A stretch of 64,000 bases of DNA from Bacteroidota bacterium (GTDB lineage: Bacteria; Bacteroidota; Bacteroidia; NS11-12g; UBA955): NCBI GenBank assembly GCA_030682255.1, contig JAUXOK010000009.1:50428-114427 (forward strand), given 5' to 3'. Position 1 is the stretch's first letter. The number at the start of each line of letters is the position of its first letter. The notes below the pieces were generated by a model, which saw only the letters and a program-made list of their open reading frames with translations, had not been told where the DNA came from and searched no databases. The position numbers and the translations under genes are program-made. Shown piece after piece: positions 30,242 to 51,818 of the stretch.

Positions 30242-30386
30242 TGTTTCAAAACAAATTAAAAAACATCGAAAAACATTGAAATACTTTAATAATCTTACAA
30301 TATTTTTATATCAACAATTTAGTACCATATTAAATGAATGTTAATGATTTTAATTATTTTTGCCGAAAATTTATAGAAAGTTAATA

Positions 30387-31976
30387 ATGAATAATCAAGA
30401 AATAATTTCAGATATTATTAAAAATGCATCAAAAGCTCATTTGAATTTAAGTTCAGACGAACTAATTACTAAAGCGATTGAGAGAAACGAAGGTATTATT
30501 ACCGACCAAGGCGCTTTAGCTGCTGATACAGGTGAATTTACAGGTAGATCGCCTAAAGACAAATTTACAGTTTGCGATGCTAAAACTGAAAACACAGTAT
30601 GGTGGGGACCTGTAAATACTAAATTTGATGAAACTAAGTTTGACGCCTTATTAAACAAAGTTTTAGCACACTTCGGAAACAAAGAATTATTCATTAGAGA
30701 CGCTTTTGCTTGTGCAAATCCAAAATACAGACTTGATATTAAAGTAGTTACCGAATCGGCTTATCAAAATTTGTTTGCCAAAAACTTGTTTTTAAGACCC
30801 GAATCTAACGACAACCAAACAGAATGGATTATTTTGGCAGCACCTTCTTTTAGAGCTAATCCAGCAGAAGATGGCACCAGACAACACAATTTCTCAATCA
30901 TCAATTTCACTAAAAAAATCATTTTAATTGGTGGTTCTGGCTATACTGGAGAAATCAAAAAAGGCATTTTCACTGTTTTAAATTATATTTTACCTCAAGA
31001 AAGAGGCGTTTTATCCATGCATTGCTCTGCAAATATTGGCAAAGCAGGCGATACAGCTGTATTCTTTGGTTTATCTGGCACAGGCAAAACCACCCTTTCT
31101 GCCGACCCAGAAAGACAATTAATTGGAGATGACGAACACGGATGGGACGAAGAGTCAGTATTTAATTTTGAAGGCGGTTGTTATGCAAAATGCATTGATT
31201 TAACAGAAGAAAAAGAACCACAAATTTGGCATGCTATCAAACATGGTGCTTTGGTAGAGAATGTTAGATTCTATCCAAACTCGAACAAAGTAAACTACGA
31301 AGATGTATCTGTAACAGAAAACACCCGTGTTGCCTACCCTATCGAACACATCGAAGGCATTGCAGTTCCATCAATGGGCAAAGCGCCAAAAAATATTTTC
31401 TTTTTAACTTGTGATGCTTATGGTGTTTTACCACCAATTTCTAAATTAACTGTAGAACAAGCCATGTACCATTTCATTTCTGGATATACCAGCAAAGTAG
31501 CAGGAACAGAAGCAGGCATCACAGAACCACAAAGCACCTTTTCTGCATGTTTCGGACAAGCATTTTTACCACTTCATCCAACCAAATACGCTGATTTATT
31601 AGGCAAAAAACTAAGTGATAACCAAGATGTAAAAGTTTGGTTACTAAACACAGGTTGGAGCGGTGGCGGTTATGGCGTTGGTAGCAGAATGAAACTTTCA
31701 TTAACCAGAGCCATGTTAACAGCTGCTTTGAATGGCGAGTTAGACAACATTGAATTTACACAACACCCTGTTTTTGGTGTTTTAATACCTACCACTTGTC
31801 CAAATGTACCTGATGAGATTTTGAACCCAAGAAACACTTGGGCAGACAAAAACGAATACGACAAAGCAGTTAATGCCTTGGCAGACAAGTTTAATGAAAA
31901 CTTCAAGAAATTTGAAGATGGCGCATCAAGTGCCATATTAAGTGCAGCACCCAAAGCGGTTGTATCTGTAGTTTAA
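30387..31976 (+). CDS. pckA: phosphoenolpyruvate carboxykinase (ATP)
   Basis: FGLSGTGKTTLS kinase-1a motif, GDDEHGW and other PckA signatures throughout. ATG at 30387 preferred over TTG at 30360. Confidence 0.95.
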   Translation: MNNQEIISDIIKNASKAHLNLSSDELITKAIERNEGIITDQGALAADTGEFTGRSPKDKFTVCDAKTENTVWWGPVNTKFDETKFDALLNKVLAHFGNKELFIRDAFACANPKYRLDIKVVTESAYQNLFAKNLFLRPESNDNQTEWIILAAPSFRANPAEDGTRQHNFSIINFTKKIILIGGSGYTGEIKKGIFTVLNYILPQERGVLSMHCSANIGKAGDTAVFFGLSGTGKTTLSADPERQLIGDDEHGWDEESVFNFEGGCYAKCIDLTEEKEPQIWHAIKHGALVENVRFYPNSNKVNYEDVSVTENTRVAYPIEHIEGIAVPSMGKAPKNIFFLTCDAYGVLPPISKLTVEQAMYHFISGYTSKVAGTEAGITEPQSTFSACFGQAFLPLHPTKYADLLGKKLSDNQDVKVWLLNTGWSGGGYGVGSRMKLSLTRAMLTAALNGELDNIEFTQHPVFGVLIPTTCPNVPDEILNPRNTWADKNEYDKAVNALADKFNENFKKFEDGASSAILSAAPKAVVSVV

Positions 31977-32065
31977 TTTTTTTTTAAAACCCAATCAAAA
32001 CAATTTATTAATTCATGTGTTAATGAATATGTTGATTGTGTTTTCATAGTTTTAGTTTTACTAAT

Positions 32066-32098
32066 AGAGTCACCATACAAGGTGGCTCTATTGGTTTT
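32066..32098 (+). terminator. probable pckA intrinsic terminator
   Basis: AGAGTCACC-ATACAA-GGTGGCTCT hairpin (one G-U pair) followed by a weak T-rich tract, 90 nt after the pckA stop. Confidence 0.4.
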
Positions 32099-32265
32099 AT
32101 AGGGGTTTAAATGAATTGATTTTGTAGGTAATACCATTTATAAATTAAAAACAGTCCACAAACCTTTTTGGTAAATGCCGACATAACAAATAAATAGTTC
32201 ATATATGCGAAGCATAAATTGGACTATATTATTTGTATATTCGGTATAATTATATTTTTATACTT

Positions 32266-32362
32266 TTGGGCGCCTTTGCCTCGCCCTTTGGGTTCCGTCT
32301 CGGCTGAGCCGAGACCAGCCTTATCAGGCTGCCTCCGGTCTCGGGGCGCATTCGTTTTTCTT
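32266..32362. repeat. GC-rich ~95-bp repeat, left copy; inverted partner at 49241-49340
   Basis: 32266-32298 matches the reverse complement of 49307-49340 (one mismatch, one 1-nt indel). 32336-32354 matches the reverse complement of 49248-49266 (18/19). Internal hairpins GTCTCGGC-TGA-GCCGAGAC and CAGCCT-TATC-AGGCTG. Confidence 0.85.
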
Positions 32363-32397
32363 TACAACCAAACGATTACCTCTATCTCTTCAATTTA

Positions 32398-32439
32398 TTG
32401 GTTGGTCACATACACAAGCCCTTGCTTCAGACCAACCAA
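32398..32439 (-). terminator. hairpin downstream of the SIR2 gene (possible terminator)
   Basis: Perfect 10-bp inverted repeat TTGGTTGGTC / GACCAACCAA with a 22-nt spacer that adds an inner AAGC/GCTT stem. Lies 46 nt past the SIR2 stop. Weak U-tract. Confidence 0.35.
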
Positions 32440-32484
32440 GGGGAAAAGACTCCCTACCTGATACAAAACCCTCATCAGATGAAA

Positions 32485-33819
32485 TTATTCTAGTATTTTT
32501 GGTATTTCCAAATATGATGTCCATATGGTTCCATTTATTATGTCTTCAAGCATAATTTGGTTATCGATTTTCATTTCGTGCCATCTGTTATGCCAAGATT
32601 GCCAGGCATGCCATGAATAACCCTTATAAAGTTTTTTACTAGAGTAACTAAATGAATACTTTGCTATTTCACAAAAATCCATTTCAAATTCTGTACCTTT
32701 AATTTTAATAATTGAAGCGATTTCAATTAACCAGTCTGCAAGATGTTCATATTGTGTCCATGCATTATTTTCTCTTGTGAATTGCAGCTTTTTATCCAGT
32801 AGTGACATTAAAGTTTTTATAAAAACCTTGTCTTTACTTTCAATACCCAAACTAGCAGCTTGAAGTAGAATCGTGGTCAGCGACACCTTCAATTTCAGAA
32901 AGTCATCGGTGTAATAATGTGATCCCGCCATTACATCTTTTAAATTTTCAACTGAATCAATAAGATCCTTTGCTTTTTCATACTTGGCGTCAACTTTGTC
33001 AAAGAACAAATCAGTTGGTGTGTTTTGTATGACTTTAATACCATATGTAACTGAATAGAATTTTTCTATAACATCAGGAATTGTGTCACGAGTTATGTAG
33101 TATAAATCTGTTCTTCTAAACGATTCATTTTTTGAATTTTTCACTTCATTAAGAATCGAATTTAGATTGAAATCACCTAATGAGTAACCTAAAATTGCAA
33201 CTGTAGTCTCTTGCAGAAGAGTGAAAAATTTTCTTGAAAAATAGTTATTAGAGTTTTGGAAGTTGTAATAATCATTTATTGTCAATATTATGCTTTCAGG
33301 TCTATTTACTGAGCCATGTATATGATAAATATTTTGACCTGAGTTAAGTCTTGGAATTATACTGCCTTCAATTACTATTCGACTTGTAATCGGAATTACA
33401 AAATCTGAAAAAATTGTATCATAGTTTGTTGTTACTATATTTATATTGGGGTGAGTTGAGAAGAACGCTTGTAGGTGTTCTAGTTTTTCCTTATCAATTG
33501 TTTTTTCGTTTATTCTTGCTTTGATTATTTTGGCTATCTGTACTTTAATATTTTTTCTCTTTTTTAAGTATTCACTTTCTAAGATTTGAGCACAAATAGT
33601 TAAGTCGTAAATAGCTTCTTTAACTTTGCCTGAAGAATCTGTGTTAAATAATTGGTTTAGTAGTTTGTCTTCTTTGTCTATAACAATAGTGCAGTCTACA
33701 AGCAATTCTAGCCAATTAGGAGCTTTGCCATTGGTCATATACTTACTAAATCCTGTGCCAACAAAAAGTGTCAAGGAGTTAGTATGTAAAGATGTCGCTA
33801 TGTCTAAGTAGTCACTCAT
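32485..33819 (-). CDS. SIR2_2-family (ThsA-like) putative NAD+ hydrolase with uncharacterised helical C-terminal domain
   Basis: LFVGTGFS (Rossmann Gly loop), VTTNYD, IYHIHGS (catalytic His) and VAILGYSLGDFNLNSIL align motif-for-motif with the ThsA SIR2 domain (IFAGAGLS, TTNYD, KMHGD, FVGFSFTDPNLDYIL). C-terminal ~170 aa are W/H-rich and helical, and do not look like SLOG. Confidence 0.75.
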   Translation of the reverse strand: MSDYLDIATSLHTNSLTLFVGTGFSKYMTNGKAPNWLELLVDCTIVIDKEDKLLNQLFNTDSSGKVKEAIYDLTICAQILESEYLKKRKNIKVQIAKIIKARINEKTIDKEKLEHLQAFFSTHPNINIVTTNYDTIFSDFVIPITSRIVIEGSIIPRLNSGQNIYHIHGSVNRPESIILTINDYYNFQNSNNYFSRKFFTLLQETTVAILGYSLGDFNLNSILNEVKNSKNESFRRTDLYYITRDTIPDVIEKFYSVTYGIKVIQNTPTDLFFDKVDAKYEKAKDLIDSVENLKDVMAGSHYYTDDFLKLKVSLTTILLQAASLGIESKDKVFIKTLMSLLDKKLQFTRENNAWTQYEHLADWLIEIASIIKIKGTEFEMDFCEIAKYSFSYSSKKLYKGYSWHAWQSWHNRWHEMKIDNQIMLEDIINGTIWTSYLEIPKILE

Positions 33820-33870
33820 ATAATTGCACCCAACATATTTATTTAAGATTTTTTTATTAAATGTATAGTG

Positions 33871-34839
33871 TTATTTTTTAGCTTTTATAATTGCTTTTAC
33901 TTTCTCTTTCCAATTTCCTCTATGCTCAACTCTTATAAATTGGTCGCTTGGTCTGTTTTGTATATCTAACCTACTTAATCTACTTAATTCTCTCCAATTT
34001 TCAAATAATATATATAGAGCATTTCCATAATTTGAATTTTCAAATGCAACAAGACTTTCTGAAAATTTTACACCAAAATATCTACGCATTCCGCTATTGC
34101 CAATAATTGTTTGTATAGGGTTTTCGCTTCTTAAAAATGAATACCTATCAATAATTTCATTTGCTCTTTGAGGTGTTATATTTCTTAAACCATTTGTTAT
34201 TTTTGAAAGATCTTGATCCATTGTACCTGGGGGGAAGATTTCCCAATTTAACTGCAATGTTTGTAGATATTCATCAATAGAAGTATTACTATTATAAACA
34301 TTTACTGATCCAATATTTTCTTGAAGAAGATTAATGTTAAAAAAAAGTTCTTCTATAAAATTATTGGCATTTTTATTTAATATTTGATTAGTACTGAATT
34401 TCAAACTATGAAATATTACGCCATCCTCATCAGTAGTTTCTAAATGTTCTACACAAATTGAAATCTCTTTTGGGGGTATTACATCATAAGGAGTAACCAT
34501 CCTAGTTACATAAAGAGAAAAAGAACCTTTATTAAAATCTCCGAAAATTGCTCTTTCTCCTAAATAATAGGTTTTCGACACTTTTGGTCTATCAGGGTAT
34601 CGAATTTTATACCCTTTTACATTTTTCCTGCTAAAACTACCATTTGTGAATAAAGGAACAAATTCATCAATAAAGTTGAGTTCCCCATTATTTAAATTAA
34701 GGTTAATTTGTGAATAAAACTCATTATCAAAATCGTCATTAGTGATTTTTTTAATTGTTGCAATTGTAACATCATCGCTTTCAATATTATCTAATTGTTG
34801 TAGGATAAATTCTGGAGTTTTTCTGAAGTTTTTTCTCAT
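33871..34839 (-). CDS. uncharacterised 322-aa protein, first gene of the SIR2 operon
   Basis: Clean ORF 51 nt upstream of the SIR2 gene on the same strand. No TM segment, no signal peptide, no Walker, TIR, HNH or PD-ExK motif that I can recognise. Confidence 0.6.
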   Translation of the reverse strand: MRKNFRKTPEFILQQLDNIESDDVTIATIKKITNDDFDNEFYSQINLNLNNGELNFIDEFVPLFTNGSFSRKNVKGYKIRYPDRPKVSKTYYLGERAIFGDFNKGSFSLYVTRMVTPYDVIPPKEISICVEHLETTDEDGVIFHSLKFSTNQILNKNANNFIEELFFNINLLQENIGSVNVYNSNTSIDEYLQTLQLNWEIFPPGTMDQDLSKITNGLRNITPQRANEIIDRYSFLRSENPIQTIIGNSGMRRYFGVKFSESLVAFENSNYGNALYILFENWRELSRLSRLDIQNRPSDQFIRVEHRGNWKEKVKAIIKAKK

Positions 34840-34963
34840 AGTTTTATATGTTTATTTTTAAATTGTATTTTAAGCCGTTTTGTGACTTATTTGCAATTAT
34901 ACAAAATATCCCACAAACCAAAAATATATTTTAACATTCCCCCCAAACCTCCAAACAAAAAAA

Positions 34964-34991
34964 ACCGTTCGCATCAACGAACGGTTTTTTT
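34964..34991. terminator. bidirectional intrinsic terminator separating the 339-aa gene from the SIR2 operon
   Basis: ACCGTTCG-CATCAA-CGAACGGT hairpin, flanked by A8 on the left and T7 on the right. Confidence 0.65.
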
Positions 34992-35025
34992 GTAGTATTA
35001 ATTTAAATGTTATTTAGTTTAGTGC

Positions 35026-35101
35026 TTCCCGCATGTAAACTGCGTGTGGTTTTATACTATTATCAAATAACCATTAACTTCCCGCAGTTTACATGCGGGA
35101 A
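35026..35101. repeat. perfect 19-bp inverted repeat with 38-nt spacer
   Basis: TTCCCGCATGTAAACTGCG (35026-35044) and CGCAGTTTACATGCGGGAA (35083-35101). The right arm can also fold on itself (TTCCCGCA/TGCGGGAA). Confidence 0.8.
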
Positions 35102-35106
35102 ACCAT

Positions 35107-36126
35107 CTACTCAGGCGTTAACTCAAAATTGAATACCCCACTGCCTTCGGGGGTTAAAGCCACAATGGAGGCAAACGGCTGAAAGCCCATTGCCATAATG
35201 TTGACATTGGCAGATTCATCTGCTGTGATGGCAATGTCCAACGTGTATTCACCAAGTGGGTTGGTGTTGGTCATTAACGGCCCAATCGTGGTATTGAACG
35301 TTAACATGGCATCACCAATTGGTGTAGCACCAACAGCACTGGTAACTACACCTGAAATGGTGTATGGTGTTGGGTCGGGGTCGGGATTTGGTAAACTGGT
35401 GTTTACAACAAAGCCCCATTCCGACAAGGTTTGTTCATTGCCTTTGTAAATGCCCTGCAAAACATCCCTAACGGCTCTCACATAGTTTGCCAATGTACCT
35501 TTGGTTTTGCTGCTTTGGGTTTTGGCTCTGCCCATAGCCAAATTGCGATCTTGTAAAGCTTTTTCCTTATCGCCTTTTAGTTTTTCGGCTAATACGGTTT
35601 GGGTATCTGCAATGGTAAGCAAACTGTTAAATGCCGTCATATCAAAAGGTGTTAAAATGGAGCTTACACCATCTGCTGTGTCTTTGGCACTTATTTTTTT
35701 AGCCAATTTCAACAACTCTGTAGCTTTGCGTGGTATCAACACATTGATGTCTTTATCCTTTTTTCTGTTGACCACAAAACCCCAATCGCCCAATGTTTTT
35801 TCTGAGCCTTTGTTTACACCAAGCAGAAAATCTCGAATACCTGACACAAAATACAAAACGGTATTGGGTGTGTAGGATGATTGTGTGTCTGCCAATCCCA
35901 AGGCTAAATCGCGGTCTTCTATCGCTTTTTCTTTATCTAATGCCAATTGTTCCGATTCATCGTGTTTGGTTTTGGCAATGGTATTTTTGGCTATCATATC
36001 AGCCATGTTGATACCATTGAGTATGCTGCTTACACCGTCTAAGGTGTGTTTATTAACTATGTCGTTCGACAAGGTGAGAAATTCATCCACATTTTGTGGA
36101 ATGATAACTCTAAAATTATTTTTCAT
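35107..36126 (-). CDS. hypothetical protein with tandem ~115-aa internal duplication and C-terminal CarboxypepD_reg/Ig-like beta domain
   Basis: Repeat 1 (LDGVSSILNG ... LGDWGFVVN) and repeat 2 (ADGVSSILTP ... LSEWGFVVN) are clearly homologous. A PNPDPDPTP linker follows, then ISGVVTS ... GEYTL, a beta-sandwich-like tail. Visibly higher GC than the neighbouring genes. Confidence 0.6.
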   Translation of the reverse strand: MKNNFRVIIPQNVDEFLTLSNDIVNKHTLDGVSSILNGINMADMIAKNTIAKTKHDESEQLALDKEKAIEDRDLALGLADTQSSYTPNTVLYFVSGIRDFLLGVNKGSEKTLGDWGFVVNRKKDKDINVLIPRKATELLKLAKKISAKDTADGVSSILTPFDMTAFNSLLTIADTQTVLAEKLKGDKEKALQDRNLAMGRAKTQSSKTKGTLANYVRAVRDVLQGIYKGNEQTLSEWGFVVNTSLPNPDPDPTPYTISGVVTSAVGATPIGDAMLTFNTTIGPLMTNTNPLGEYTLDIAITADESANVNIMAMGFQPFASIVALTPEGSGVFNFELTPE

Positions 36127-36531
36127 ATTAGAAATATTATATGGTTTGTGTTGAATAATTAGGGATTCAACTTTCCCTGTTGGATGCCTTTTGCGCCCTG
36201 TATCAGAATACCTGTTAGATAGGCTGATGTGTTTTTTAATGGTACTTGTGCGACTTCAAGTTTTCATAAAATTTGAGGTCTATGCGCAAGGGGGTTCTCT
36301 GGCAAATGGGGCTTTAAAATAACCTTTTAAAGCTTTGTAGTTTGAGTTTTGATATGGCCTGATTTGGCTCGAGGTGAAATAAAGCACATCCATTTTTTTG
36401 GGTGTGTTTGGCATTGTTTTATATTTCCTTTTGATTTTACTGCAATGATTTACCAAACCCATCCAATTGTTTCTTGAACGATTTAGCTTGTTTTTCAAAG
36501 CAATAGACACTTTCATGGTGTCGTAATACCC

Positions 36532-37017
36532 ATTTATTGAGGCATAAGACTCATTTATCGCAGTGTGAAAATGATTGTTGCATGTTTGGCAATCATTTAT
36601 TGAGGTGTCAATTTGATTTATTGAGGTCTGGAAACCATTTATTGAAGTCAAGAAATGATTGTTTGAGGTCTTGGAATGATTTATTGAAGTGTCTACCTGA
36701 TTTATTGAAGATTTCGAGGTATTTATGGGCGTATGGACAAACCTTATTGAAGTCCATAAATGAGTGTTATAAGCCATTAAATGAGGGCTAGAAGCGAATA
36801 AATCATATCCAGGAGCGAATAAATGAGGGGTTGAAGCGAATAAATCATTTCTACGAGTGAATAAATGAGGAGTAGAAGCCAACAAATCATTTCTTCGAGC
36901 CAATAAAAGAGAGTTAGGAGTGAATAAATCATGTCTAAGGCTCAACATAAAAAAACTTGGTTCCAATAAATGGCACTTAGAAGTGGATATCACAGGTTTT
37001 GAAGCCAATAAATGAGG
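36532..37017. repeat. 21-bp-phased array of ~24 units in two inverted arms (iteron-like)
   Basis: Arm 1 core ATTTATTGA(G/A)G starts at 36532, 36553, 36574 ... 36742 (every 21 bp). Arm 2 core AATAAAT(G/C)A starts at 36755, 36776 ... 36965 and 37007 (every 21 bp, with the 36986 slot degenerate). The cores are reverse-complement related (SATTTATT). Each unit has ~11 conserved plus ~10 variable nt. Confidence 0.85.
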
Positions 37018-37542
37018 GGATGAATCAGTTTGATATTGGCTGTTATTGATGGCAATTGCCCCACAAACAAAAAGCAATGTTGAAAGACTCAACATTGCTT
37101 TTCTACAATTTAATACGAAGGTTTTTGTTAAACACCATATGATAACCCTGCGAAACATAACAACATAACTCTTATATAGACACATTTATTGTATGAGATG
37201 CTGCATTTTTTTAAAAAAAAAGATGAGATATTTGTTTTGGGGGATGAATTTGAATTAAAAAACCGCTTCTTGCATTTGTGAAAACTTTTTCGTTTGTTTG
37301 TAGAAACTAAAATGAAGAGATGAAGATAATAAAATCAAAAATATATTTTCGAAATACAATCAACAATCAAGGTAATCATAATATATTTAACTTTAACCAA
37401 AATCCTAGTTGCTATGGAAATAACTCTTGTCAACTGAATTTCATTTTCAAAACCGTCTTATCTTATTCAAAATATAATTTATGATTACCCAAAAAACAAT
37501 GTTTTTTTCTTTTGATAAAATTATAGTAACTACTAATAACTT

Positions 37543-40500
37543 ATGAGTGCAGACAATCCAATATTAAATAGTCCTTATCTAGAACCTTTGCTACATTATA
37601 ACACAGACAGCGAAGGCAGTTTGGACTATACGGATATTCGCAAGGGACGAAGAATATTTAAAGCGGATTCCGCAGTTATTCCCACTAGACAAACGGGTCA
37701 AAGGGAAGTTTTTGAATGGAACGAAGATGCAGGCGAATATTTAACACATATCATCAACCTTTGCAGAAAAGAAGTAGGGCAATGGCGTGCAGCCAATTAC
37801 CCAAATACAACAAGAGTTACAAAAGAACTATTGACTTTTTGGTTTAACAATCCTGAAAGACTTATAACAAAAAAACTATTCTTTGCTCAACAAGAAGCTG
37901 TTGAAACCGCTATTTGGATAAATGAAGTTGCCGAGAAATCAAACGCAGGTCAACACATTTTAAACTTACTTCGCAACGGACAACACACAGTTAGTGATGA
38001 CACAGCAGACCAACTTCCGAGAATTGCTTTTAAAATGGCGACAGGTTCGGGCAAGACAGTTGTTATGGCTTGTTTAATTTGTTATCACTATTTCAACAGA
38101 CAAGAATACAGAAACGACACCCGATTTGCCGATTATTTTTTAATTGTTGCACCTGGCGTTACAATCAAAAGCAGATTAGGTGTTTTGTTCGTAGATACGA
38201 AAAACAAAAATCCAAAAGACATTGAAGATTATTACCGTGTTCGTGGGCTAATTCCTGCTAATATGGAACATCGTTTGGAAAATCTAAATGCAAGACTTGT
38301 CATTACCAATTACCACACATTTGAACCTAAAATTTTACAAGGCAATAAACGCAGTCCTTTTGATGGCAAAGTAGATTTACAAGGCAAGAAAATTGACACA
38401 GGGAACAAAGAAGATTTTTCGCAAGTAGTGAAACGTACTTTGGCGAAATTCAAAGCAGGAAGCAGAGTATTGATTCTAAATGACGAAGCACATCACTGCT
38501 ATTTACCAAAATCAAAAAGCAAAACAACTGACAATGAAGAAGCAGACGAAAACGCAAGAGCAGCCGTTTGGTTTAGCGGACTACGTGAAATTGCAAAGAA
38601 ATTCAAACTACAATCGGTTTATGATTTATCGGCAACACCATATTATTTGACAGGCTCGGGTTATACACCTTACAGTTTATTTCCTTGGGTAGTTTCTGAC
38701 TTTGGCTTAATAGAAGCGATTGAAAGCGGCTTAGTAAAAATTCCTTTCTTGCCAGAAAGCGACAACACACAAGAATTGACAATGCCAGTCTTGCGTAATT
38801 TGTACGACCACGTTAAAGATGAGCTTCCCAAAAAAGGATTAACTAAACGAAAAGCAGAAGCAAAAGCAGAAGGCAAAATATTTCAAGAAGAATTACCAAG
38901 GATTCCTTCACTGGTAAAAGGCGCATTAGACCAATTTTACAATCACTATGTTGAGTATTATAATGGCATAAGAAAACACAAAGAACAAAAAGCAAATATT
39001 TTTTCAGCTCCACCTGTATTTATCGTAGTATGTAATAATGTTTCTGTTTCAAAAGAAGTTTATAAGTATGTTGCGGGTTTTGAATACAATAACGAGGATG
39101 GAACATCAACAACAACAGTTCAAGGGGCAAAAGATTTGTTCAGCAATTACGACCCTGCTACAAATAAACCTTTGAAACGACCGCCAACATTGCTTATTGA
39201 CAGCGATGCATTGGAAAACGGAGAGCAAATAAATGACGATTTCAAAAAAATATTTTCTTCGGAAATAGAAGAATTTAAAAAAGACTATGCCCGAATGTAT
39301 GGGCAAGGAAGCACCGACAAAATTTCGGATGCTGAAATTCTTCGTGAAGTAGTAAACACAGTTGGACAGCAAGGAAAATTAGGTTCACACATTCGTTGTG
39401 TGGTTTCTGTATCTATGCTCACAGAAGGTTGGGATGCTAACACAGTAACACATATAATGGGTTTACGTGCCTTCGGTTCTCAATTGCTTTGTGAGCAAGT
39501 GGCAGGTAGAGCTTTGCGGAGAATGAGTTATCATTTGCAAGGTTATGATAAAGATGGAAACCCAACTGACGACAAACGCAAAATCGTAATCGAAAAATTT
39601 CCACCTGAATATGCTCACATCATAGGTGTTCCATTCAAAATGTTTAAAGGCGGAAAAACCGAACCGCCACCGCCACCAGTTGACTTAACACACATTGCTT
39701 CTATTCCAGACAGACAAGCAGCTATGGAAATTGATTTTCCAAATGTGGTTGGCTATCGAGTTGAAAACTTAGATGGTGATATAAAACACGATTTCAGCAA
39801 TATTGAAAACTATGAAATTTTCGGAATGCCAACAGTTACAGAAATGGCAAGTCCAATTTCTCCCAATAAAGAAATATTGGAAGTAAAAGGTGTATTGGAA
39901 AAACGTGACCAAGAATTAATTTTCCTTATCACCAAAGAACTTATTAAATACCATTTTAGCGATGAAGAAGGAAACCCACGTTTCCAAAAATTCAATAAGC
40001 TAAAAAGCATTGTGGAAGAATGGTACAACAAAAAAGTAATAGTTCTAAATCTTGAACCACAGTTTAGGAAACTACTTTATTTTGAAGACCCTAAAAAAAT
40101 AGTTGACCATATTGCCCGTGGTATCAATCCACAAAACAATACCACCGAACATATTCGACCTGTGTTTAACTATTACAACAAGTTTAGCAGCACAAAATAT
40201 GTAAATGGTAATACTGTAAAAGATGTTTACCCAACCGAAAAAAGCCACGTGAATTATGTGGTGATGGATAGCGATTGGGAAGGTATTTGTGCCAAAACTT
40301 TAGAAGAAATTAGCACAGTAGAATCGTATGTAAAAAATCAATTCTTAGGTTTTGCCATTCCTTATACTAAAGACGGAAAAGACAGACAATACTTCACCGA
40401 TTTTATTGCACGAGTAAAAAGCAAAGACGGTACTATCAAAAACTTGATGATAGAAATAAGCGGAATGAGTAAAGACAAAGCAGAAAAAAAATGGTTTGTT

Positions 40501-40632
40501 GAAAATCGTTGGATACCTGCTGTAAATGCTTTGAAAGAAAAATACGAATATCCCGAATGGCATTTTATTGAAATTGCAAACGATATTCGAAACATCAAAA
40601 ATCAATTAATCGAAAAAATCCAGAGTATATGA
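37543..40632 (+). CDS. res: Type III-like restriction enzyme Res subunit (SF2 helicase plus C-terminal nuclease-like region)
   Basis: Walker [13 protein letters not shown] box LNDEAHHC, motif III SATPY, motifs [12 protein letters not shown] ... [10 protein letters not shown]-terminal FTDF ... [11 protein letters not shown] is compatible with a PD-(D/E)xK-like core. Confidence 0.8.
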
Positions 40633-40964
40633 AAATAGAATGGACAGATTGGAGACCAATGCCCTCACCTGATAATTGCAAAGAAATTATTGGGCCAGAT
40701 GGTCCAGGTGTTTATCAAATAAGAAATAAAAATACAGATGAATTCATTCAATTTGGGGAAAGCAAAACCTGTCAATACAGAATGAAATCACTTTATCCAA
40801 AGCCATTTGGTATTGGAACAAGAAACAATGAAAGTAAAAGATTATATATTCTAAATAATTGGAAATTTCTAGAGTATAGAACAGCCAAAACAAACAGTAA
40901 AGAGGATGCTGTAAAAATAGATAGATACTTAAAATCATTAAACAACCATAAATTTAACACATAA
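40629..40964 (+). CDS. small GIY-YIG-like protein (tentative)
   Basis: 111 aa. GVYQI then EFIQFGES about 10 residues later, then R (QYRMKS), E (LEYR) and a terminal N, following the GIY...YIG...R...E...N spacing. ATGA overlap with the res stop. Confidence 0.4.
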
Positions 40965-40968
40965 AAAC

Positions 40969-42684
40969 ATGTCATTTCAACCATCAAGAACCGAGACAAT
41001 TAAAACACTTTTTCACGGAAATAGATTTATTATTCCAGCCTACCAACGCAAATATTCTTGGAAATTTGACCAACGAAAAGCACTTTGGGACGATATAGGT
41101 GAAAACCTTACCATGAAGCACTTTATTGGCACACTTTGCTTTAAGAAAGTTGAAAATAGTACAGATGTTTTTTCGGATGTGTATGAAATTATTGATGGCC
41201 AACAACGCACTACAACTTTATTTATTTTATTAAATGTATTAATTGAAAAAATTACTAGTGATGAATTAAAGAATGGTTTTATTAACCTATATATAGGTTC
41301 GAAGGAAACACCAAAATTAGCGTCACTGGGAGTTGATCAAGATTTTTTGAACAATGTAATATTTGATTTTACAAGTATTATGGAAGACAAATTAATTGTT
41401 AGAAGTCAAATAAACCTATATGAAGCAAAAAAAGACTTTATAGGTTTATGTTCAAAATTTAGTCAAAAAGATATCGTTGACTGGATAACTTTTATTAGTA
41501 CAAACATTGAGATTCTTATTTTTAATGTTACACATCAAGCAGAAGCAGTAAAAATGTTTTCTGTTATAAATGATAGGGGGTTACCTTTATCAAACTTAGA
41601 TAAAACTAAGAGTTTATTAATGTTATATAGTACTCTTTATCTGAATGAAGAAATAAATGAAGAAATAAACACCAAATTTGGCGACATTTTCGACTCTTTC
41701 GATGAAATGGTTTTTCTTAAAAACAAGTTAAGTCTTTTTAGAACTTTAGATGATTATGATTTTGAAAACACCTTCTATACCCACTATTATTATACGGCTA
41801 AATGGCTTTTCCCTGATTGGGACTATCAACTTGGAGCTGACAATATCTTTAAACAACTTAAAAAATTGTGTGAAGAATCAAAAACAAATGTAGTTGATTT
41901 AAGATGGAACATTGAGGAATATGTGCGAGATTTTCATGGCTTTGCCTTGGCATATGTAGCACTATTAAGAAAAGTTGATCAAGATAAAAACTATCAAAAG
42001 TATTTTTTATATATGGAGTTTGCAGCAACATTATATCCATTGCTTGTTCGATTGCACGAGCAGAAGAAACTGGATGGTTTGCTTCGCATTATAGAAGTTG
42101 TAGAAATGCGTGTATATAAATTAAAAAACACCAATCCAAGAAGAAATATGTATTTCCTTTCTTCAAATATTATTGAGGAAGAATGGACAATTGAAGAAAT
42201 AGAAACAGAACTAACCAACTTTGTCAACAATTTTTGTAACGACTATTTTACAGAACAATACTTACTAGATCAGGTCGATAATAAGACATCTTTAGTGAGA
42301 TATACTTTATATAAACAAAATCTTGAAACTCACGGCCAAGATTTAACATTAGACGAATTTCGCAATCTGCAAGTCGAACATATCTTTAGTGTAAGTCCTA
42401 ATTTTGCAATCAAACAGTATGGTTTCGGTAAACATGAAACTTATAATTTAGAAATTGCAAAAATTGGAAACTTAACAATTTTGGAAAAGGCTATAAATAA
42501 AGATGTAAATAATATGGCTCCCACAGATAAGTTAAGTGGTTATCAAAAATCTAAAATAAATTTGAATAGTAATTTAATGGGTAATCTAAATAAATTTAAT
42601 AAAGAAGAAATTGCAAATAGAACCAATGAAATAATCGAATTCTTTATGAGTGAATTTTATATAACTGAAGAAACAACATCATAA
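40969..42684 (+). CDS. DUF262 + DUF1524 protein (GmrSD-like type IV restriction enzyme family)
   Basis: N-terminal [10 protein letters not shown] and [10 protein letters not shown] (DUF262 ParB-like NTPase). C-terminal [11 protein letters not shown] ... [13 protein letters not shown] (DUF1524 His-Me finger). Confidence 0.8.
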
Positions 42685-42689
42685 ATACT

Positions 42690-45263
42690 ATGGCAAAGAA
42701 AGTTGAATCAATAAAACACAAAACCGATACCCGTGCCCACATTCCGAGTAAGGAAGAAGCAGGTTACGAAGATGCCAATGCCAAAGTGCAAGACGGAAAA
42801 AAGGTTTTAGAACTTCCTAAAAACCCTGTGGTGCATCGTGGACAAGACCCTGAATTGTTTTGGAAGAACAAATACGGCAATGACGACCGTGACGATTTGC
42901 TTCGGGTGGACATACGTAGCCTATACCGCCACGAACACATTGCACCCGAAACGCTGATAAAAAACTTATACAACGTAACCGAAACCAAAAGCGACCAAAT
43001 GGATTTGTTTAGTGTTAACGAACTTTTTGGTAATGCTTTGGATAAAGATGAAATAGAAAAAGTAAGCGAATATTACCACCATCAAGATGGCTGGACAAAC
43101 CGACTTATACAAGGCGATAGCCATTTGGTAATGGCAAGTTTATTAGAGAGAGAAGGTATGGCAGGGCAAGTACAAACATTTTATTTCGACCCACCTTATG
43201 GAATTAAATACGGTGGCAACTGGCAAATAAAATTGAACAACCGTGATGTAAAAGATGGAAATGATGAAGCATTGACGGGTGAACCTGAACAGATAAAAGC
43301 ATTTAGAGATACTTGGGAATTAGGTATCCATTCCTATTTAGGATATTTAAGGGATAGATTAATCATTGCAAAAGAAATGCTTACTGAAAGTGGTTCTTGC
43401 TTCATTCAAATTTCTGATGAAAATGTTCATTTGGTAAGAAATATAATGGATGAAGTTTTTGGAAGTGAAAATTTTTGCAATATGATTTCCTTCCAAAAAA
43501 CAGGAAGTATAGCTAGCAATGGACTAGGCACTACTGTTGATTACATAATTTGGTATTCAAAGGATAAATCGAAATTAAAATACAGACAACTTTATTTGCC
43601 ACGAAAGGCAGGACATCCATCTCTGGACAGGTATGATTATGTTGAATTACCAGATGGAAATATTTTTAAACTTACAATAGATTATATAAGGGGAGAAAAA
43701 GAAATACCAGAAGGTAAAAGGTTTGGATATACTCCTTTAATTTCGGATGGTGCTTCCAAGGAAAGCAAACCGTTCGTGTTTAATGGTGAAACATTTTACA
43801 CACCAGCTAATAAACATTGGAAAACCGACCCAGCTATTGGTGGTGAACGTTTGATTAAAAAAGGGAGAATTGCAAAAGTTGGCAATCAATTATGGTACAA
43901 AAGATATGTTGATGATTTTCCAATGATACCAATAAATGATAGATGGGAAAGTATTCAAATTGGAACAGGGTTGTTATATGTTGTACAAACTGCTGCTGAA
44001 ATTGTCAAACGCTGCATTCTAATGACTACTGACCCAGGCGATTTGGTTTTAGACCCTACGTGTGGTAGTGGTACTTCTGCTTTTGTTGCAGAACAATTTG
44101 GAAGAAGATGGATAACAATAGACACAAGTAGAATTGCCTTGAACATTGCCAAGCAACGTTTGATGACAGCCGTTTTTCCTTATTATACATTGCACGATAC
44201 ATTAAATTCGGATATACGCCAAGGTTTCAACTACAAAGAAGTTCCTCACATAATGTTAAAGGACATTGCTAATAATGAGCCATCTGAAAGTGAAAAATTA
44301 TATGACCTTCCAATTGAAGACAAAAAGTTACTTCGTGTAAGTGGCCCATTCACTGTTGAAACCTTACAAAACTTTGAGCCAATAAGCCCCGAAGCTTTGG
44401 ACGATGAAGTAAGAGTAAATGAAGAAGAAGGAGCGTTTGAAGAAGTAATCAAACAACACCTTATAAGTGCAGGAATTAAAAACGGAAGAAAAGATGAAAT
44501 GGTGGTTTTAAAACCTGACATACGTTCATTGAATAGTGAAACCTTGCATTTGGAAGGTTTCTATCAAACCGAAAAAGGAGAACAAAAAGTCTATATCCAC
44601 ATTGGTCCTAAATTTGGAACAGTAAGTAAAAAACAAGCAAACGATGCAATAAAAGAATGCAGATTAAGGGGAGATGCTCAATGGTTAGTTATACTTGGTT
44701 TTAGTTTTGAAAGCGATATTGAAGGCAGCAGCCAAACAACTAGTATGGGTAATTTCAAAGTAGATAAAGTTCGTATTCACGATGATTTGTTACAGGAAGG
44801 TTTGAAAAAGAAACCAGCCAAGTCAGCAGCCAGCTTTGTAACCATTGGCGAACCCGATATTGACCTAAACATTAAAGGCAAAGAAGCAATTGTTGAAATA
44901 AAAGGCTTAGACATTTACGACCCAATCAAAGACGAAGTAAAACCTAGGAATGTTCACGACATTGCTTATTGGATGGTGGACGAAGATTATGACGGTAGCA
45001 ACTTTGTAGTTAAACAAGTTTTCTTCTGTGGTGGCGAAAAATCTGAATTTGATAAATGGAAAAAAGGTTTATACAACCTAGCCAAAGACAGTACCAAAAA
45101 GAAAGTAGAGAAAACATTAAAAATTGAAATAGACGATGAAGCATTCGACCGTTTGTATGGACACATTTCTCATCCAATAGAAATCAAAAAGAAAGGACAA
45201 AAAATTGCTGTTAGAATCATCAGTCAATTTGGTGAAGAATGTACAAAGGTTTTAACTGCGTAA
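42690..45263 (+). CDS. mod: beta-class N6-adenine/N4-cytosine DNA methyltransferase (Type III Mod-like) with ~370-aa C-terminal extension
   Basis: Motif [10 protein letters not shown] precedes motif [26 protein letters not shown], separated by ~280 aa (TRD position as in Type III Mod). Confidence 0.8.
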
Positions 45264-45273
45264 GAGTTTAAAT

Positions 45274-46017
45274 ATGTCAGTAAAGCAATCCATAACTAGA
45301 AAGAAAATTTCAGAGAATATATCTTCTGAAACACTTTTCACATTCACAGGTAAACTGGAATACTTAATTGGGATGTTACGTGACGGAATTAAACCCCGTT
45401 ATGTTTTTGAACGTTTGCCTTACAAGGAATATCATTATATAGTTCCCGTGAAATGCTTTTGTGATATTCCACTTGGCAAAATCAAATCACATTTAGAATG
45501 GTTTGGTAATTATGGACTAGGAATCAAAAGAAGCTTTCTTCAAGATAATGGCACAACTCCAATAATGTATGTTCACGAAAAATCGGACAGAATCTTTAAC
45601 ACCATTGACAAACTCACATTAGATGAATTAAAAAAAATGCCTTCGTTACCATTACTTAAAAGACATTTTGGATGGGACTACAAAGAGCAAGAAAATGGCG
45701 AGTATGATAAGAAACAAAGAAAATTCTATGATGAACGTGAATGGCGTTATGTTCCTTCAGAAACTGAAATTGAAGTTGGAAAAGGAATGACAATTGAAAA
45801 TGGAATAAAATACGCTAAGACCAAGAACATTGAAAATCAGATAAATATTAAACCATTAAAATTAACTCCTTCATTAATTGAGTATATAATAATTTATGAC
45901 AGGAAAGAATTTGAAGAACTCAGGAAAGCTTTAGAAGATTTATACAAAAACAAAAATGTTTATGAAGAAATGCTATCAAAAATATTAATTGCAAAACAAG
46001 TATTAAGAGACTTTTAG
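45274..46017 (+). CDS. AbiGi-family abortive-infection-like protein
   Basis: LFTFTGKLEYLIGMLRDGIKPRY ... VKCFCDIPLGKIKSHLEWFGNYGLGIKRSFL ... PIMYV matches the conserved N-terminal pattern of the AbiGi family as I recall it (LFHFT ... MVCFCDIPLS ... YG.YGIG). Confidence 0.65.
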   Translation: MSVKQSITRKKISENISSETLFTFTGKLEYLIGMLRDGIKPRYVFERLPYKEYHYIVPVKCFCDIPLGKIKSHLEWFGNYGLGIKRSFLQDNGTTPIMYVHEKSDRIFNTIDKLTLDELKKMPSLPLLKRHFGWDYKEQENGEYDKKQRKFYDEREWRYVPSETEIEVGKGMTIENGIKYAKTKNIENQINIKPLKLTPSLIEYIIIYDRKEFEELRKALEDLYKNKNVYEEMLSKILIAKQVLRDF

Positions 46018-46051
46018 CCCACGCTTTTTTGAGAAATGTGAGGCTATTTTT
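46014..46051 (+). terminator. probable terminator ending the RM/AbiGi operon
   Basis: TAGCCCAC ... GTGAGGCTA stem (one bulge) followed by T6. Overlaps the stop codon. Confidence 0.45.
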
Positions 46052-46166
46052 TCAATAGATACGTTTGTAATAAAAATCACCAACTTTTATAACTAAAAAC
46101 ATAACATGGATGTTTACCGACAACAAAAAAATAATACAATAAATAATTAACAACTGAAAATAAAAT

Positions 46167-47615
46167 ATGATAGAACTTTTAATCCCTTTAATTCTTATTG
46201 GTGCTTGGACAATTTTCAGTATCATATACATTAGACGTTTTAAGAATTTTCAAATTGATAAAAACAGGAACAAAAAATCTCTTTGGAATAATCAATATAT
46301 TTTTGATAGCATCCCTTCTGTATTTCCAACACTTGGAATACTTTGTACAGCATTAGGGATTACAATTGGAATATGGAGTTTTGACGCAAAAGACATTCAA
46401 AGTAGTATACCCCAATTATTAGGTGGGTTAAAACTAGCTTTTATTGCAACAATTTTGGGTATTGTAGGTTTAATTATCTTTCAAAAATGGAATTCAATTA
46501 TCCAAAAGAAAATTGATGATGACCCAGACAGACCAATAAAAGAAACTGATGAATTGTCTGCAATTTCTAATCTAACTTTTGCTGTTCAGCAACTTAATAA
46601 AGATAATAAAATAGAATTTGAAAACTTGATTAAATCATTTGGTAATGATATTGAGTTGAAAGTTTCTGCGAAACTTTCAACTCTTGAAAATGAAATAATC
46701 AATCTTCAAAAGGCAGCAAACGAAAATCAAATAACAAGTAGTATAGGACACAGGCAAATTGTTTCAGAAACCACTAAATCTAAAGAAGAACTTGTCGAGC
46801 AATTAAAAGAATTTAGAAAAGAACAAAAAGAAACATCCGATAGAGCAAATAGTAATACATCAGAAATAATTACAGCAATGAGTTCAAATAACAATCTTAT
46901 TAGTAAAAAATTCGATGAATTTACTGAACTACTAGCTAAGAACAATACTGAAGCATTAGTTGAAGTTATGAAAACGGCAACAGAACAATTTAATAATCAA
47001 ATGAGAGATTTAATTGATAGGTTAGTTCAAGAAAATTTTGCAGAATTGAATACAAGTGTTCAAAATCTAAATAACTGGCAAAAGGAAAATAAAGAACAAA
47101 TTGCAAAACTAACAAATCAATTTATTGATGTTTCTGAAAATTTACAAATTTCTTCGAAGACGTTAAGTAATGTTGCAAAAAATACAAACGAGCTTACAAA
47201 AGACAACGGAAAACTAAATGAATTAATCGTTTCTCTTCAAAATGTACTTATCAATGATACCAAGTTTGCTGAAATGACAGATAAAATTGACAGAGCAATT
47301 ACAAGTATAAAACTAGCGACAGATGAATTTGAAGAGATTACCAGTAACGTAAATAATTGGGCAAATAAACAATCTACTTTTAATGATAAAATACAAACTG
47401 TAATTGTTCAATTAGAAGAGTTTAAAAATTTTAATGGAACTCTTTGGGACAGCTACAGAAATGAAATGAGTATATCTGTTGGAATAATAAAGGAAGCAAG
47501 CGAAACTTTAAATTCAGATTTAACAGAAATTAACTCCCAATTCTATAACCGTCTAAATGATACGCTTACAAATTTGGACGAGCTTATTCAACGATTTATG
47601 GAAGGTAGAAGATGA
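46167..47615 (+). CDS. zorA: ZorA-like MotA/ExbB-family channel protein with ~350-aa coiled-coil tail
   Basis: Three TM helices including FPTLGILCTALGITIG and LKLAFIATILGIVGLIIF (MotA/TolQ/ExbB signature positions), then a long heptad-rich E/K/N/L region. Confidence 0.55.
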   Translation: MIELLIPLILIGAWTIFSIIYIRRFKNFQIDKNRNKKSLWNNQYIFDSIPSVFPTLGILCTALGITIGIWSFDAKDIQSSIPQLLGGLKLAFIATILGIVGLIIFQKWNSIIQKKIDDDPDRPIKETDELSAISNLTFAVQQLNKDNKIEFENLIKSFGNDIELKVSAKLSTLENEIINLQKAANENQITSSIGHRQIVSETTKSKEELVEQLKEFRKEQKETSDRANSNTSEIITAMSSNNNLISKKFDEFTELLAKNNTEALVEVMKTATEQFNNQMRDLIDRLVQENFAELNTSVQNLNNWQKENKEQIAKLTNQFIDVSENLQISSKTLSNVAKNTNELTKDNGKLNELIVSLQNVLINDTKFAEMTDKIDRAITSIKLATDEFEEITSNVNNWANKQSTFNDKIQTVIVQLEEFKNFNGTLWDSYRNEMSISVGIIKEASETLNSDLTEINSQFYNRLNDTLTNLDELIQRFMEGRR

Positions 47616-48343
47616 GCAAGAAAGAAACATTTTGGATACCTTACGCAGATTTAATGACTGTTTTAATGATCATATTTCTATTTATTTCACTTTCATACAT
47701 GGGTTTGGTTCAATTTCAGAAAAACCAACAAGATGAAATATTTAAAGAGTATAAACAAACTAAACAAACGCTATATAAAGAATTAGATAAAACATTTACT
47801 GAAAAATTCAAGGATTATAACTTAAAAGTTAACCCTGACTTATCAATTCAAATAACAGATGCAAATGCATTATTCCCAGTTCAATTTTATGACCAAGAAG
47901 TTATTTTAACAGATAGGTTTAAAACATTTTTAAATGAGTTTACACCTCTTTTTTTATCTATTATACTTAAAGACCAATACTTAGAAAGTATTTCAGAAAT
48001 TAGAATCGAGGGGCATACGGCTCTCCAAACAGAAGATAAAGAAAACGATAAGGTTTACTATCAAAAAATGCTAACACTTTCTCAAAAAAGGTCAAATAAA
48101 GTTCTTGAACATATGATGAATTTAAGTTATTATGACCAGTTAGCTGAATCAAAAAAAACTTTGCTTAGATTTATTACAACTTCTAATGGATTAGCATATG
48201 GTAAAGCCTTGGATTCAGAAGGAAATTTCAAGTTCTTATCAGGCAAATCGATAAATACAGAGAAATCAATGAGGGTTGAGTTTCGTATTGTTACAACTAG
48301 TGAAAAGTTAGTAGAGAAAGTATTAGAGCAATTAAATAAATAA
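47612..48343 (+). CDS. zorB: ZorB-like MotB/OmpA-family protein
   Basis: MotB-type N-terminus FWIPYADLMTVLMIIFLF with the conserved Asp. C-terminal OmpA-like IRIEGHTA ... LSQKRSNKVLEHM ... RVEFRIV. 4-nt overlap with the upstream gene. Confidence 0.6.
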   Translation: MSKKETFWIPYADLMTVLMIIFLFISLSYMGLVQFQKNQQDEIFKEYKQTKQTLYKELDKTFTEKFKDYNLKVNPDLSIQITDANALFPVQFYDQEVILTDRFKTFLNEFTPLFLSIILKDQYLESISEIRIEGHTALQTEDKENDKVYYQKMLTLSQKRSNKVLEHMMNLSYYDQLAESKKTLLRFITTSNGLAYGKALDSEGNFKFLSGKSINTEKSMRVEFRIVTTSEKLVEKVLEQLNK

Positions 48344-48344
48344 T

Positions 48345-49181
48345 ATGTTATACGATTTTAAACATAAAATCAAGTCTAGTCAAACAAAAACACTTTGTGA
48401 TTTTTTGGATGAACAAAACTATCAACAAGTTATAGGAATTGGTTTTCAAGTTATTCGAAGAGATTTAACACAGGAAGAAAGTGCAGGTAATATTTCATAT
48501 AGAAATGATGGTGTTTACTTGACTGTTAATGGTCAAGAATTTAAAGGATATATATATTTAAAATACAAAGTTCGTATTACTCAATATGGCTATCCAAAAT
48601 TTCATATAAAGAAATGTGGAACTTTGGAAAACGCAATTCAAAATGGAGACTTTTTAGGTAGATACTATTGGCATAATTCAAACACTGTTTCTATTGAAGA
48701 CAGACCAAGCGGAAACATTCACGAAGATATAAACCTTGAATTATGTGGTTATTGTCGTAGTTATAACTCACCAAGTTCCACACAAGAATTTTATAATGAA
48801 TTAGAAGAAAACAATGAATTAAATCAAGAAGAAGATATTGAAGTTGATATTTTCGGATATGTAAGAGAATGGCAGCGAATTAGTCAACAATATAAAACTA
48901 AAAAAGAGTATACTTGTGAAAAATGTAGCATTCAAATGATAGGAATTGACAAACGTTACATTCACACTGACCACATAAATGGAGATAAAACAAGGAATAT
49001 TGAAAGTAATTTTGAATGCCTATGTATTTTATGCCATTGTTATAAAGACGAACAGCACAGGCAAAATTTTGGTAAAAAAAGAATGAAAAGAGAACTTACT
49101 TCTTTCGTAAACAAGTATAGTAGCACTTTGCGTAACTTGCTGAACAGTCATTTAGACCAATTTGAATCAGACAACAGTTAA
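48345..49181 (+). CDS. zorE: ZorE-like HNH endonuclease-domain protein
   Basis: C-terminal CEKCS ... HTDHINGDKTRNIESNFECLCILCH is an HNH (His-Me finger) motif with Cys pairs. Starts 1 nt after the zorB-like stop. Confidence 0.55.
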   Translation: MLYDFKHKIKSSQTKTLCDFLDEQNYQQVIGIGFQVIRRDLTQEESAGNISYRNDGVYLTVNGQEFKGYIYLKYKVRITQYGYPKFHIKKCGTLENAIQNGDFLGRYYWHNSNTVSIEDRPSGNIHEDINLELCGYCRSYNSPSSTQEFYNELEENNELNQEEDIEVDIFGYVREWQRISQQYKTKKEYTCEKCSIQMIGIDKRYIHTDHINGDKTRNIESNFECLCILCHCYKDEQHRQNFGKKRMKRELTSFVNKYSSTLRNLLNSHLDQFESDNS

Positions 49182-49240
49182 TAAAATTATTTCAGCTGTT
49201 AAAAAATTGACAGTTAAGTATATAATCGATTGATTTTCAG

Positions 49241-49340
49241 AGCAAACCGAATGCGCCCCAAGACCGTAGGCTACCCTGCAAGGGTAGGTACGAAACGCAG
49301 TGAAGTACGGAACCCAAAGGGCGAGGCTAAGGCGCCCCAA
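49241..49340. repeat. GC-rich ~95-bp repeat, right copy; inverted partner at 32266-32362
   Basis: See the left copy. Internal hairpin TACCCT-GCA-AGGGTA. The GC-rich block sits in an AT-rich intergenic region. Confidence 0.85.
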
Positions 49341-49454
49341 TTAATTTTAGATTTATCCTTCGAGAACCTCAGGATGACATATTGAATTAAGTTCCGAAGT
49401 CTCGGAAGAAGATTTTTGATTTTTTAATTAAGCCGAAGTTGATGTTTTCAACAA

Positions 49455-51740: not shown

Positions 51741-51767
51741 TTCTTTTTCCGTTTGCAAAACTACAAA

Positions 51768-51783
51768 AGTTAGACTAATCTAA
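51768..51783. promoter_or_regulatory. candidate DtxR/MntR-family operator in divergent promoter
   Basis: Perfect palindrome GTTAGA-CTAA-TCTAAC between the TBDR and the DtxR-family regulator. It resembles the GTTAG..CTAAC core of DtxR-type boxes. Confidence 0.4.
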
Positions 51784-51818
51784 CAAATTTTGTTTGAAAA
51801 ATTCATTAACTTTGCAAA

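Follow-up and report, generated by a model that had tools for sequence, protein, structure and literature searches.

The 64,000-nt stretch of Bacteroidota DNA analysed here (the window) carries a defence island of ~17.1 kb, which lies between the core gene pckA and a locus for a TonB-dependent receptor (TBDR) and a DtxR-family repressor. At each end of the island stands a GC-rich element of ~95 nt in a surrounding genome of 33% GC (window 32.9%). The two elements are copies of each other in inverted orientation and are named IR-L and IR-R (left and right inverted repeat). Their parts are as follows.

32265-32361, plus strand: IR-L, left GC-rich element, 68% GC
32265-32298: outer arm of IR-L
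32299-32330: variable hairpin centre of IR-L
32331-32361: inner arm of IR-L
49241-49340, minus strand: IR-R, right GC-rich element, inverted relative to IR-L, 62% GC
49241-49271: inner arm of IR-R
49272-49306: variable hairpin centre of IR-R
49307-49340: outer arm of IR-R

IR-L lies 289 nt past the stop codon of pckA and ~125 nt past that of a minus-strand SIR2 gene. IR-R starts ~60 nt past the stop codon of the Zorya gene for ZorE and ends 114 nt before the stop codon of the minus-strand TBDR gene. In a repeat search the pair proved to be the longest inverted repeat of the window, and no non-coding patch outside its two members reaches 60% GC there. The initial annotation had described inverted ~95-bp GC-rich repeats at the island ends, and the alignment bears this out: the outer arms (34 nt) are 94% complementary and the inner arms (31 nt) 87%. 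The longest exact run common to both elements measures ~21 nt. The repeats are not a product of chance, a 21-nt core occurring exactly twice in the window against 0.00 occurrences expected (100 shuffles). Nor are they assembly artefacts: in a second, independently made assembly of this strain (Logan, run SRR13727520) both elements recur with 100% identity, each on a contig of its own. The Logan contigs split the island (32222-35274 and 37080-59256, with ends at 32222, 35274 and 37080). The end at 32222 is 43 nt outside IR-L, and the join between pckA and IR-L is seen in the window's own assembly only. Variation within the population, low coverage or an AT-rich k-mer that occurs repeatedly could each have caused this break.

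Aligned over their whole length (95 columns), the two copies share a conserved 5' block GGGCGCCTTnGCCTCGCCCTTTGGGTTCCGT and a conserved 3' block GCCTnCGGTCTyGGGGCGCATTCG, which flank a divergent centre of ~35 nt. The arm sequences of the element are GGGCGCCTTNGCCTCGCCCTTTGGGTTCCGT and CGGTCTYGGGGCGCATTCG, its termini TTTTGGGCG and AATTGGGGCG. Identity between IR-L and IR-R amounts to 93% in the arms and 57% in the centre, and 16 of the 20 differences fall within the central 37 of the 95 columns (P=3.5e-5). This clustering in the aligned copies points to arms that are constrained and a spacer that is free to diverge. Conserved arms with a variable centre are the pattern expected of protein-binding sites around a spacer.

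The core genes on both sides of the island and the spacer next to pckA were compared with the corresponding loci of relatives. The homologues of PckA place the organism among uncultured Bacteroidia of the Bacteroidota.

30360-31976, plus strand: pckA, left core flank; translation probably starts at 30387, for a length of 529 aa that agrees with the homologues
32031-32094, plus strand: putative piece of the ancestral pckA-TBDR spacer, with motif GTTGATTGTGTTTT..., a hairpin (32064-32094) and a T-run
49455-52532: right core flank, with the TBDR gene (minus strand) and the gene for the DtxR-family repressor (plus strand)

In contigs of five relatives, with PckA identities of 89% (four relatives) and 83% (one), FecCD-pckA is directly convergent with TBDR-DtxR across a spacer of 105-310 nt. 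Since these contigs join pckA directly to TBDR/DtxR without the element, the island is a lineage-specific insertion. The adjacency of the two core loci is ancestral, and the insertion between them, as initially annotated, holds. The repeats are absent from these empty sites: in four of the five relatives the spacer is readable as DNA and contains AT-rich hairpin terminators and no GC-rich element. Two other relatives (PckA 93% and 87% identical) have different genes downstream of pckA. The comparison of pckA-TBDR synteny thus yields an empty site at the level of gene order in five relatives, but not the exact junctions, which are not recoverable because the relatives' spacers are too diverged; mapping failed on spacers that are unalignable save one 14-nt motif.

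This motif, GTTGATTGTGTTTTnATAGTTTTA, together with the hairpin and T-run after it, occupies 32031-32094 in the window, 11836-11897 in one relative's locus (L006) and about 11825-11885 in another (L007). No other part of the spacer is shared by the window and the relatives whose PckA is 89% identical. In the relatives the piece abuts the TBDR stop codon, while here it is found on the pckA side of the island. The piece might act as a conserved terminator or encode a small RNA. On the other side of the island, a terminator-like hairpin with T-run (TTCCGAAGTCTCGGAA GAAGATTTTT) lies at 49392-49417 on the plus strand, between IR-R and the TBDR stop codon. If this hairpin terminates the Zorya operon, IR-R would be situated in the 3' untranslated region of that operon and the insert would extend beyond the repeat.

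Alignment and folding agree with the earlier description of the element centres, which differ and which each fold into GC hairpins of their own. The stem of one central hairpin is kept despite changes on both sides (CAGCCT/AGGCTG vs CTACCCT/AGGGTAG), and the centres contain GTAG- and CGTC-adjacent palindromes that differ between the copies (plus strand: GTAGGCTACCCTGCAAGGGTAGG in IR-R, CGTCTCGGCTGAGCCGAGAC in IR-L). The preserved stem and the palindromes count in favour of an alternative that we consider somewhat unlikely, namely that IR-L and IR-R belong to a low-copy, lineage-specific intergenic family. This family would resemble repetitive extragenic palindromes (REP) and bacterial interspersed mosaic elements (BIME) or miniature inverted-repeat transposable elements (MITE). 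Its copies would have provided the homology for capture or exchange of the island, or would have inserted secondarily at the boundaries. Each element is indeed a mosaic of short GC-rich hairpins in a spacer between convergent 3' ends, which is the typical site and form of REP/BIME elements (PMC2817692, PMC3733652); the lack of both a target-site duplication and a transposase also suits such a family. However, the two arms within an element are not inverted repeats of each other, unlike the ends of a MITE. Furthermore, REP/BIME units are 20-40 nt long, tagged with GTAG or CGTC and associated with REP-associated tyrosine transposases (RAYT) (PMC2817692, PMC3733652), and REP families usually exceed 100 copies per genome (PMC2817692). 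Here, just two copies of ~95 nt are present in 64 kb, both at the island boundaries, and a search for genes of the RAYT/IS200-like type or for other transposases returned none in the window.

The wider distribution of the element argues in the same direction. Further copies were sought in the 64-kb window, the relatives' loci and sequence collections. A profile built from IR-L and IR-R detected no diverged copy, either elsewhere in the window or across ~100 kb from the relatives' loci. The 20-mer core had no true match among 185,579 GTDB species representatives; the two matches, in Asticcacaulis and Sphingomonas, were discarded as chance, as their similarity does not go beyond the 20-nt seed. 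Neither the 30-mer 5' block nor the 22-nt 3' block matched anything in the JGI metagenomes (0 matches). Four patterns run against IMG/VR gave nothing, or chance matches in contigs much more GC-rich than the window, and sensitive blastn searches of PLSDB and INPHARED gave nothing, or chance matches of 21-28 nt (E≈0.9). The probability that two randomly placed copies hit both island boundaries is ~1e-3 by our own post-hoc estimate, which assumes ~50 equivalent spacers. The initial annotation had offered two readings, the ends of a non-autonomous element with terminal inverted repeats (TIR) and dispersed REP-like copies that mark a recombination hotspot. The evidence fits the first better, although neither is proven. 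Recurrence, which the hotspot would imply, is not seen, all five sampled relatives being empty at this locus.

The folding and the flanking signals might also indicate a function at the level of transcription. The elements would then be inward-facing terminators that insulate the outermost, convergently oriented island genes from host read-through, or small RNA genes transcribed into the island. On the strand that is plus at the left end and minus at the right end, the fold is more stable both for IR-R (-34.2 vs -26.8 kcal/mol) and for the two-sequence consensus (-20.2 vs -13.6 kcal/mol). In the inward-reading direction a T-run follows the inner arm, clearly at IR-L (CATTCGTTTTTC) and more weakly at IR-R (GGTTTGC), and a terminator scan marked a terminator-like site at 32330-32348 on the plus strand. 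Moreover, the motif TACTTTTG, which we take to be a match to the Bacteroidetes -7 box TAnnTTTG, adjoins IR-L at 32261-32268. We nevertheless regard this explanation as unlikely. In IR-R, little of the promoter-like box and of the T-run is conserved, pckA already has a terminator hairpin of its own (32064-32094), and homologous SIR2 and Zorya loci do without the element. The z-scores for folding of the whole elements are weak (IR-L -2.5, IR-R -0.9). A long stem formed by pairing of the 5' and 3' arms, as suggested by RNAalifold, was rejected, the energy of the arm-arm duplex being no better than that of shuffled arms (P=0.35-0.55). No described structured RNA was recognised either: Rfam 15 gave no family at gathering thresholds and only noise at E up to 10. 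A guide-like role of the variable centres was discarded as well, their sole match elsewhere in the window being one 10-mer; by our estimate, chance alone would yield a few of these.

The DNA between the repeats contains the following features.

32485-34839, minus strand: SIR2_2 protein (444 aa; PDC-S25/ThsA-like), with a partner of 322 aa encoded upstream and assigned to no family
35107-36126, minus strand: orphan gene (339 aa; GC 0.42), with a weak C-terminal CarboxypepD_reg-like domain as its sole family signal
36530-37020: repeat array of ~20 units at strict 21-nt spacing, between the divergently transcribed halves of the island
37543-46017, plus strand: operon for a BPTD_3080-family type III restriction endonuclease (1029 aa), a 111-aa open reading frame (ORF), GmrSD (571 aa), a type III methyltransferase (857 aa) and AbiGi (247 aa)
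46167-49181, plus strand: type II Zorya system with ZorA2 (482 aa), ZorB2 (243 aa) and a ZorE-like HNH protein (278 aa)

IR-L and IR-R bracket exactly the accessory DNA: they enclose all accessory genes of the window, and all of these are defence-related or without family. The contents listed by the initial annotation (the SIR2 pair, an orphan gene, the array, a restriction-modification/GmrSD/AbiGi operon and a Zorya trio) were confirmed as accessory. Its impression that several island genes are GC-richer than the flanks, in contrast, did not hold. The island genes have a mean GC content of 0.317 vs 0.339 for the core genes, the island as a whole has 0.326 vs 0.329 for the rest of the window, the 339-aa orphan gene (0.42) being the one exception.

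The repeats are independent of the cargo modules. A homologue of the SIR2 protein with 89% identity is found in 10 contexts in other Bacteroidota genomes, all without the element, and a homologue of ZorE with 78% identity belongs to a Zorya trio that stands beside a Fic gene, again without the element. An attachment of the element to the SIR2 or Zorya module was therefore rejected. Since close homologues of both terminal modules lack it, the element belongs to the boundary of the island and not to either defence system. As far as these homologues indicate, the island is a mosaic of modules that travel separately.

As annotated initially, the island lacks a recombinase. Neither the island nor any other part of the 64-kb window encodes a recombinase, transposase or integrase, and no tns genes are present. 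The four island proteins without family gave no recombinase signal in Pfam, PHROGs, NCBIfam, PADLOC and PDB sequence searches; a hidden recombinase among them was rejected, all these searches being negative. For the 322-aa and 339-aa proteins, single-sequence AlphaFold prediction gave models of unusable quality (predicted local distance difference test, pLDDT, 32-34). Because no recombinase is encoded in island or window, any mobilisation of the island would have to occur in trans.

A trans-acting enzyme might, on the other hand, use the repeats without moving the island. Global trans-acting invertases exist in Bacteroidota, and the inverted orientation of arms that are 93% identical would permit inversion of the 17-kb block between them, either by homologous recombination or by such an invertase as in Bacteroides. 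This is highly improbable. Because the island is built symmetrically and its operons face outward at either end, inversion would alter no relation between promoter and gene. In addition, the longest exact common run is short (~21 nt), the Logan assembly passes through IR-R without a branch, and inversion leaves the coincidence of the repeats with the insertion boundaries unexplained.

We tentatively propose, with slightly less than even confidence, that IR-L and IR-R are the cis-acting ends of a non-autonomous cargo element of ~17.1 kb. According to this proposal, the mosaic defence island would have been inserted, as a single bounded piece, into the terminator spacer between the convergent pckA and TBDR genes. 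Each end would be bipartite, its outer arm (~34 bp) and its inner arm (~25-31 bp) being near-identical between the ends. The arms would be recognised by a recombinase or transposase whose gene lies elsewhere in the genome. The spacer of ~32-35 bp between the arms would be free to diverge, yet it is GC-rich and hairpin-forming. Through the T-run past the inner arm, the same module could also block read-through from the host genes into the island. We favour cis-acting ends because the arms are constant and the spacer is free, because the repeats fit the edges of the insert, and because they are absent from empty sites and independent of the cargo. Overall, the locus consists of real and unusual boundary repeats around a bona fide defence island and is best classed as an inverted-repeat-bounded cargo element without a recombinase of its own.

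Several observations weigh against this proposal. The mobility of the island is unproven: no second insertion site, excision product, precise empty site, target-site duplication or cognate enzyme was found, and the case for it comes from presence or absence in fairly distant relatives. These relatives are 78-81% identical to the window in pckA at the nucleotide level, and the similarity ends at the stop codon. No collection searched contained a second copy of the island or of its ends, or a matching autonomous element. A scan of 10 x 11 end positions for target-site duplications of 3-10 nt found only TTT/TTTT, which is trivial in AT-rich DNA; the initial annotation, too, had seen no obvious duplication. 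Arm sub-motifs that recur just inside the ends, as in the multi-site ends of Tn7 and Mu, were not found. Nothing in the empty sites corresponds to the AT-rich stretches outside the repeats, ~165 nt long on the IR-L side and 114 nt on the IR-R side. If the conserved spacer piece is homologous, these outer stretches may belong to the insert, and the repeats would then be subterminal. Finally, the separate occurrence of the cargo modules elsewhere also fits a stepwise accretion of the island.

By mechanism, the closest analogues of such a cargo element are MITE-flanked composite transposons, Tn3-derived inverted-repeat miniature elements (TIMEs) and integron mobilisation units. In all of these, two miniature elements in inverted orientation enclose the cargo, which is moved by an enzyme acting in trans (PMC10969869; an example is described in PMC6382973). 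The island resembles them in carrying a multi-kb cargo without a transposase of its own between two short inverted boundary elements, which in the known cases measure about 100-450 bp. However, the known cases have a recognisable parent insertion sequence or transposon with matching repeats, a target-site duplication and many dispersed copies, and none of these three was found here. In terms of a TIR-bounded transposon or MITE composite, the island thus has terminal inverted repeats and lacks the duplication. Its ends are GC-rich hairpin mosaics, in contrast to the plain transposase-binding repeats of the known cases. Tn7-like elements often carry defence cargo, and Tn7- and Mu-like ends have a length of ~90-150 bp, with conserved protein-binding segments and non-conserved spacers. 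IR-L and IR-R share this alternation of conserved segments and a non-conserved spacer, but not the TGT...ACA termini, the 5-bp duplication, the repeated TnsB sub-sites or the tnsABC-like genes of Tn7-like elements.

By context, core defence hotspots come closest. The core defence hotspot cDHS1 of Pseudomonas aeruginosa has no hallmark of a mobile genetic element, and its transfer by homologous recombination through the flanks has been proposed (PMC10250203). Like cDHS1, the present island combines several defence systems between conserved core genes and has no integrase. Hotspots are defined by variable occupancy across strains, whereas all five relatives sampled at the present locus are empty, and discrete inverted-repeat boundaries as seen here are not reported for cDHS1 (PMC10250203). 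With REP/BIME elements the likeness is confined to the GC-rich palindromic mosaic in a spacer between convergent genes. Two further classes were rejected. An integron attC site does not apply, as direct reading revealed no AAC/GTT core sites (R'' RYYYAAC, R' GTTRRRY), the copies are inverted and not direct, and no integrase is present. An island targeted to a tRNA or transfer-messenger RNA (tmRNA) gene does not apply either, since the 64-kb window contains no tRNA, tmRNA or integrase gene and the repeats are inverted, not direct attachment sites. The absence of a tRNA had already been stated in the initial annotation.

Many defence islands lie between core genes and lack recognisable mobility genes, which leaves their assembly and movement to be explained (for example PMC10250203). 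Discrete and constrained inverted ends on an island that has no recombinase would give a concrete handle on this, and the arms could be used as a sequence tag for sister islands and for the acting enzyme; as a single instance from one uncultured strain, the island is a lead. It is quite unlikely, even more so than a role in transcription, that the locus represents an undescribed class of trans-mobilised carriers of defence islands in AT-rich Bacteroidota, which would possess bipartite ends of ~95 bp, a recombinase that reads two arms, and no target duplication. In that case the same ends should bracket other recombinase-less islands of the lineage.

Some individual cargo genes deserve a comment. 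The 89%-identical SIR2 homologue (P0227, contexts L016-L025; 126 blocks of the collection are listed) is recorded on many contigs of another Bacteroidota lineage. In every one of these contexts a 122-aa HTH_17 (excisionase-like) gene comes before it and a conserved CHU_C/Peptidase_S74 block after it. Beyond the HTH_17 gene the upstream DNA is variable (HipA/HTH_31, a second HTH_17, Peptidase_S46), and the 322-aa partner is absent from these contexts. The gene order suggests that the homologue borders a variable region. The orphan gene has a GC content of 0.42 both overall and at third codon positions, far above every other gene of the window (0.27-0.38). This atypical composition suggests a donor other than that of the rest of the island.

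In the left half of the repeat array the motif reads TCATTTATTGAGG, and in the right half it has the opposite orientation (CGAATAAATCAT / CGAATAAATGAGG). This flip argues for an array of binding sites at the DNA level (iterons, a centromere or an operator) rather than a coding repeat. A 301-aa ORF on the minus strand (36280-37185) spans the array; its translation reads as heptads (TSINxxx; DLFASTPHLFxRRN) and matches no family. The Logan contig ends at 35274 and 37080 lie on either side of the array. Within the neighbouring operon, the restriction enzyme contains a weak match to a TnsA-like nuclease fold (E=0.002). The 111-aa ORF (40629-40964, plus strand), located between the restriction endonuclease and GmrSD, shows weak similarity to UvrC N-terminal (GIY-YIG) and MBD4 glycosylase domains (E 0.007-0.03, PDB sequences) and might assist the restriction-modification/GmrSD operon as a small nuclease or DNA-binding protein.

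The rest of the window (47 kb) is ordinary core DNA, with genes for Rho, DnaE, Dtd, PckA and transporters among others. It includes an ORF of 1854 aa (14670-20234, minus strand) in which a diverged 27-nt motif (AAAATCnnCnnnnGGTTTnGGATAAAC) is repeated seven times and which probably encodes a large repetitive surface protein, unrelated to the island.

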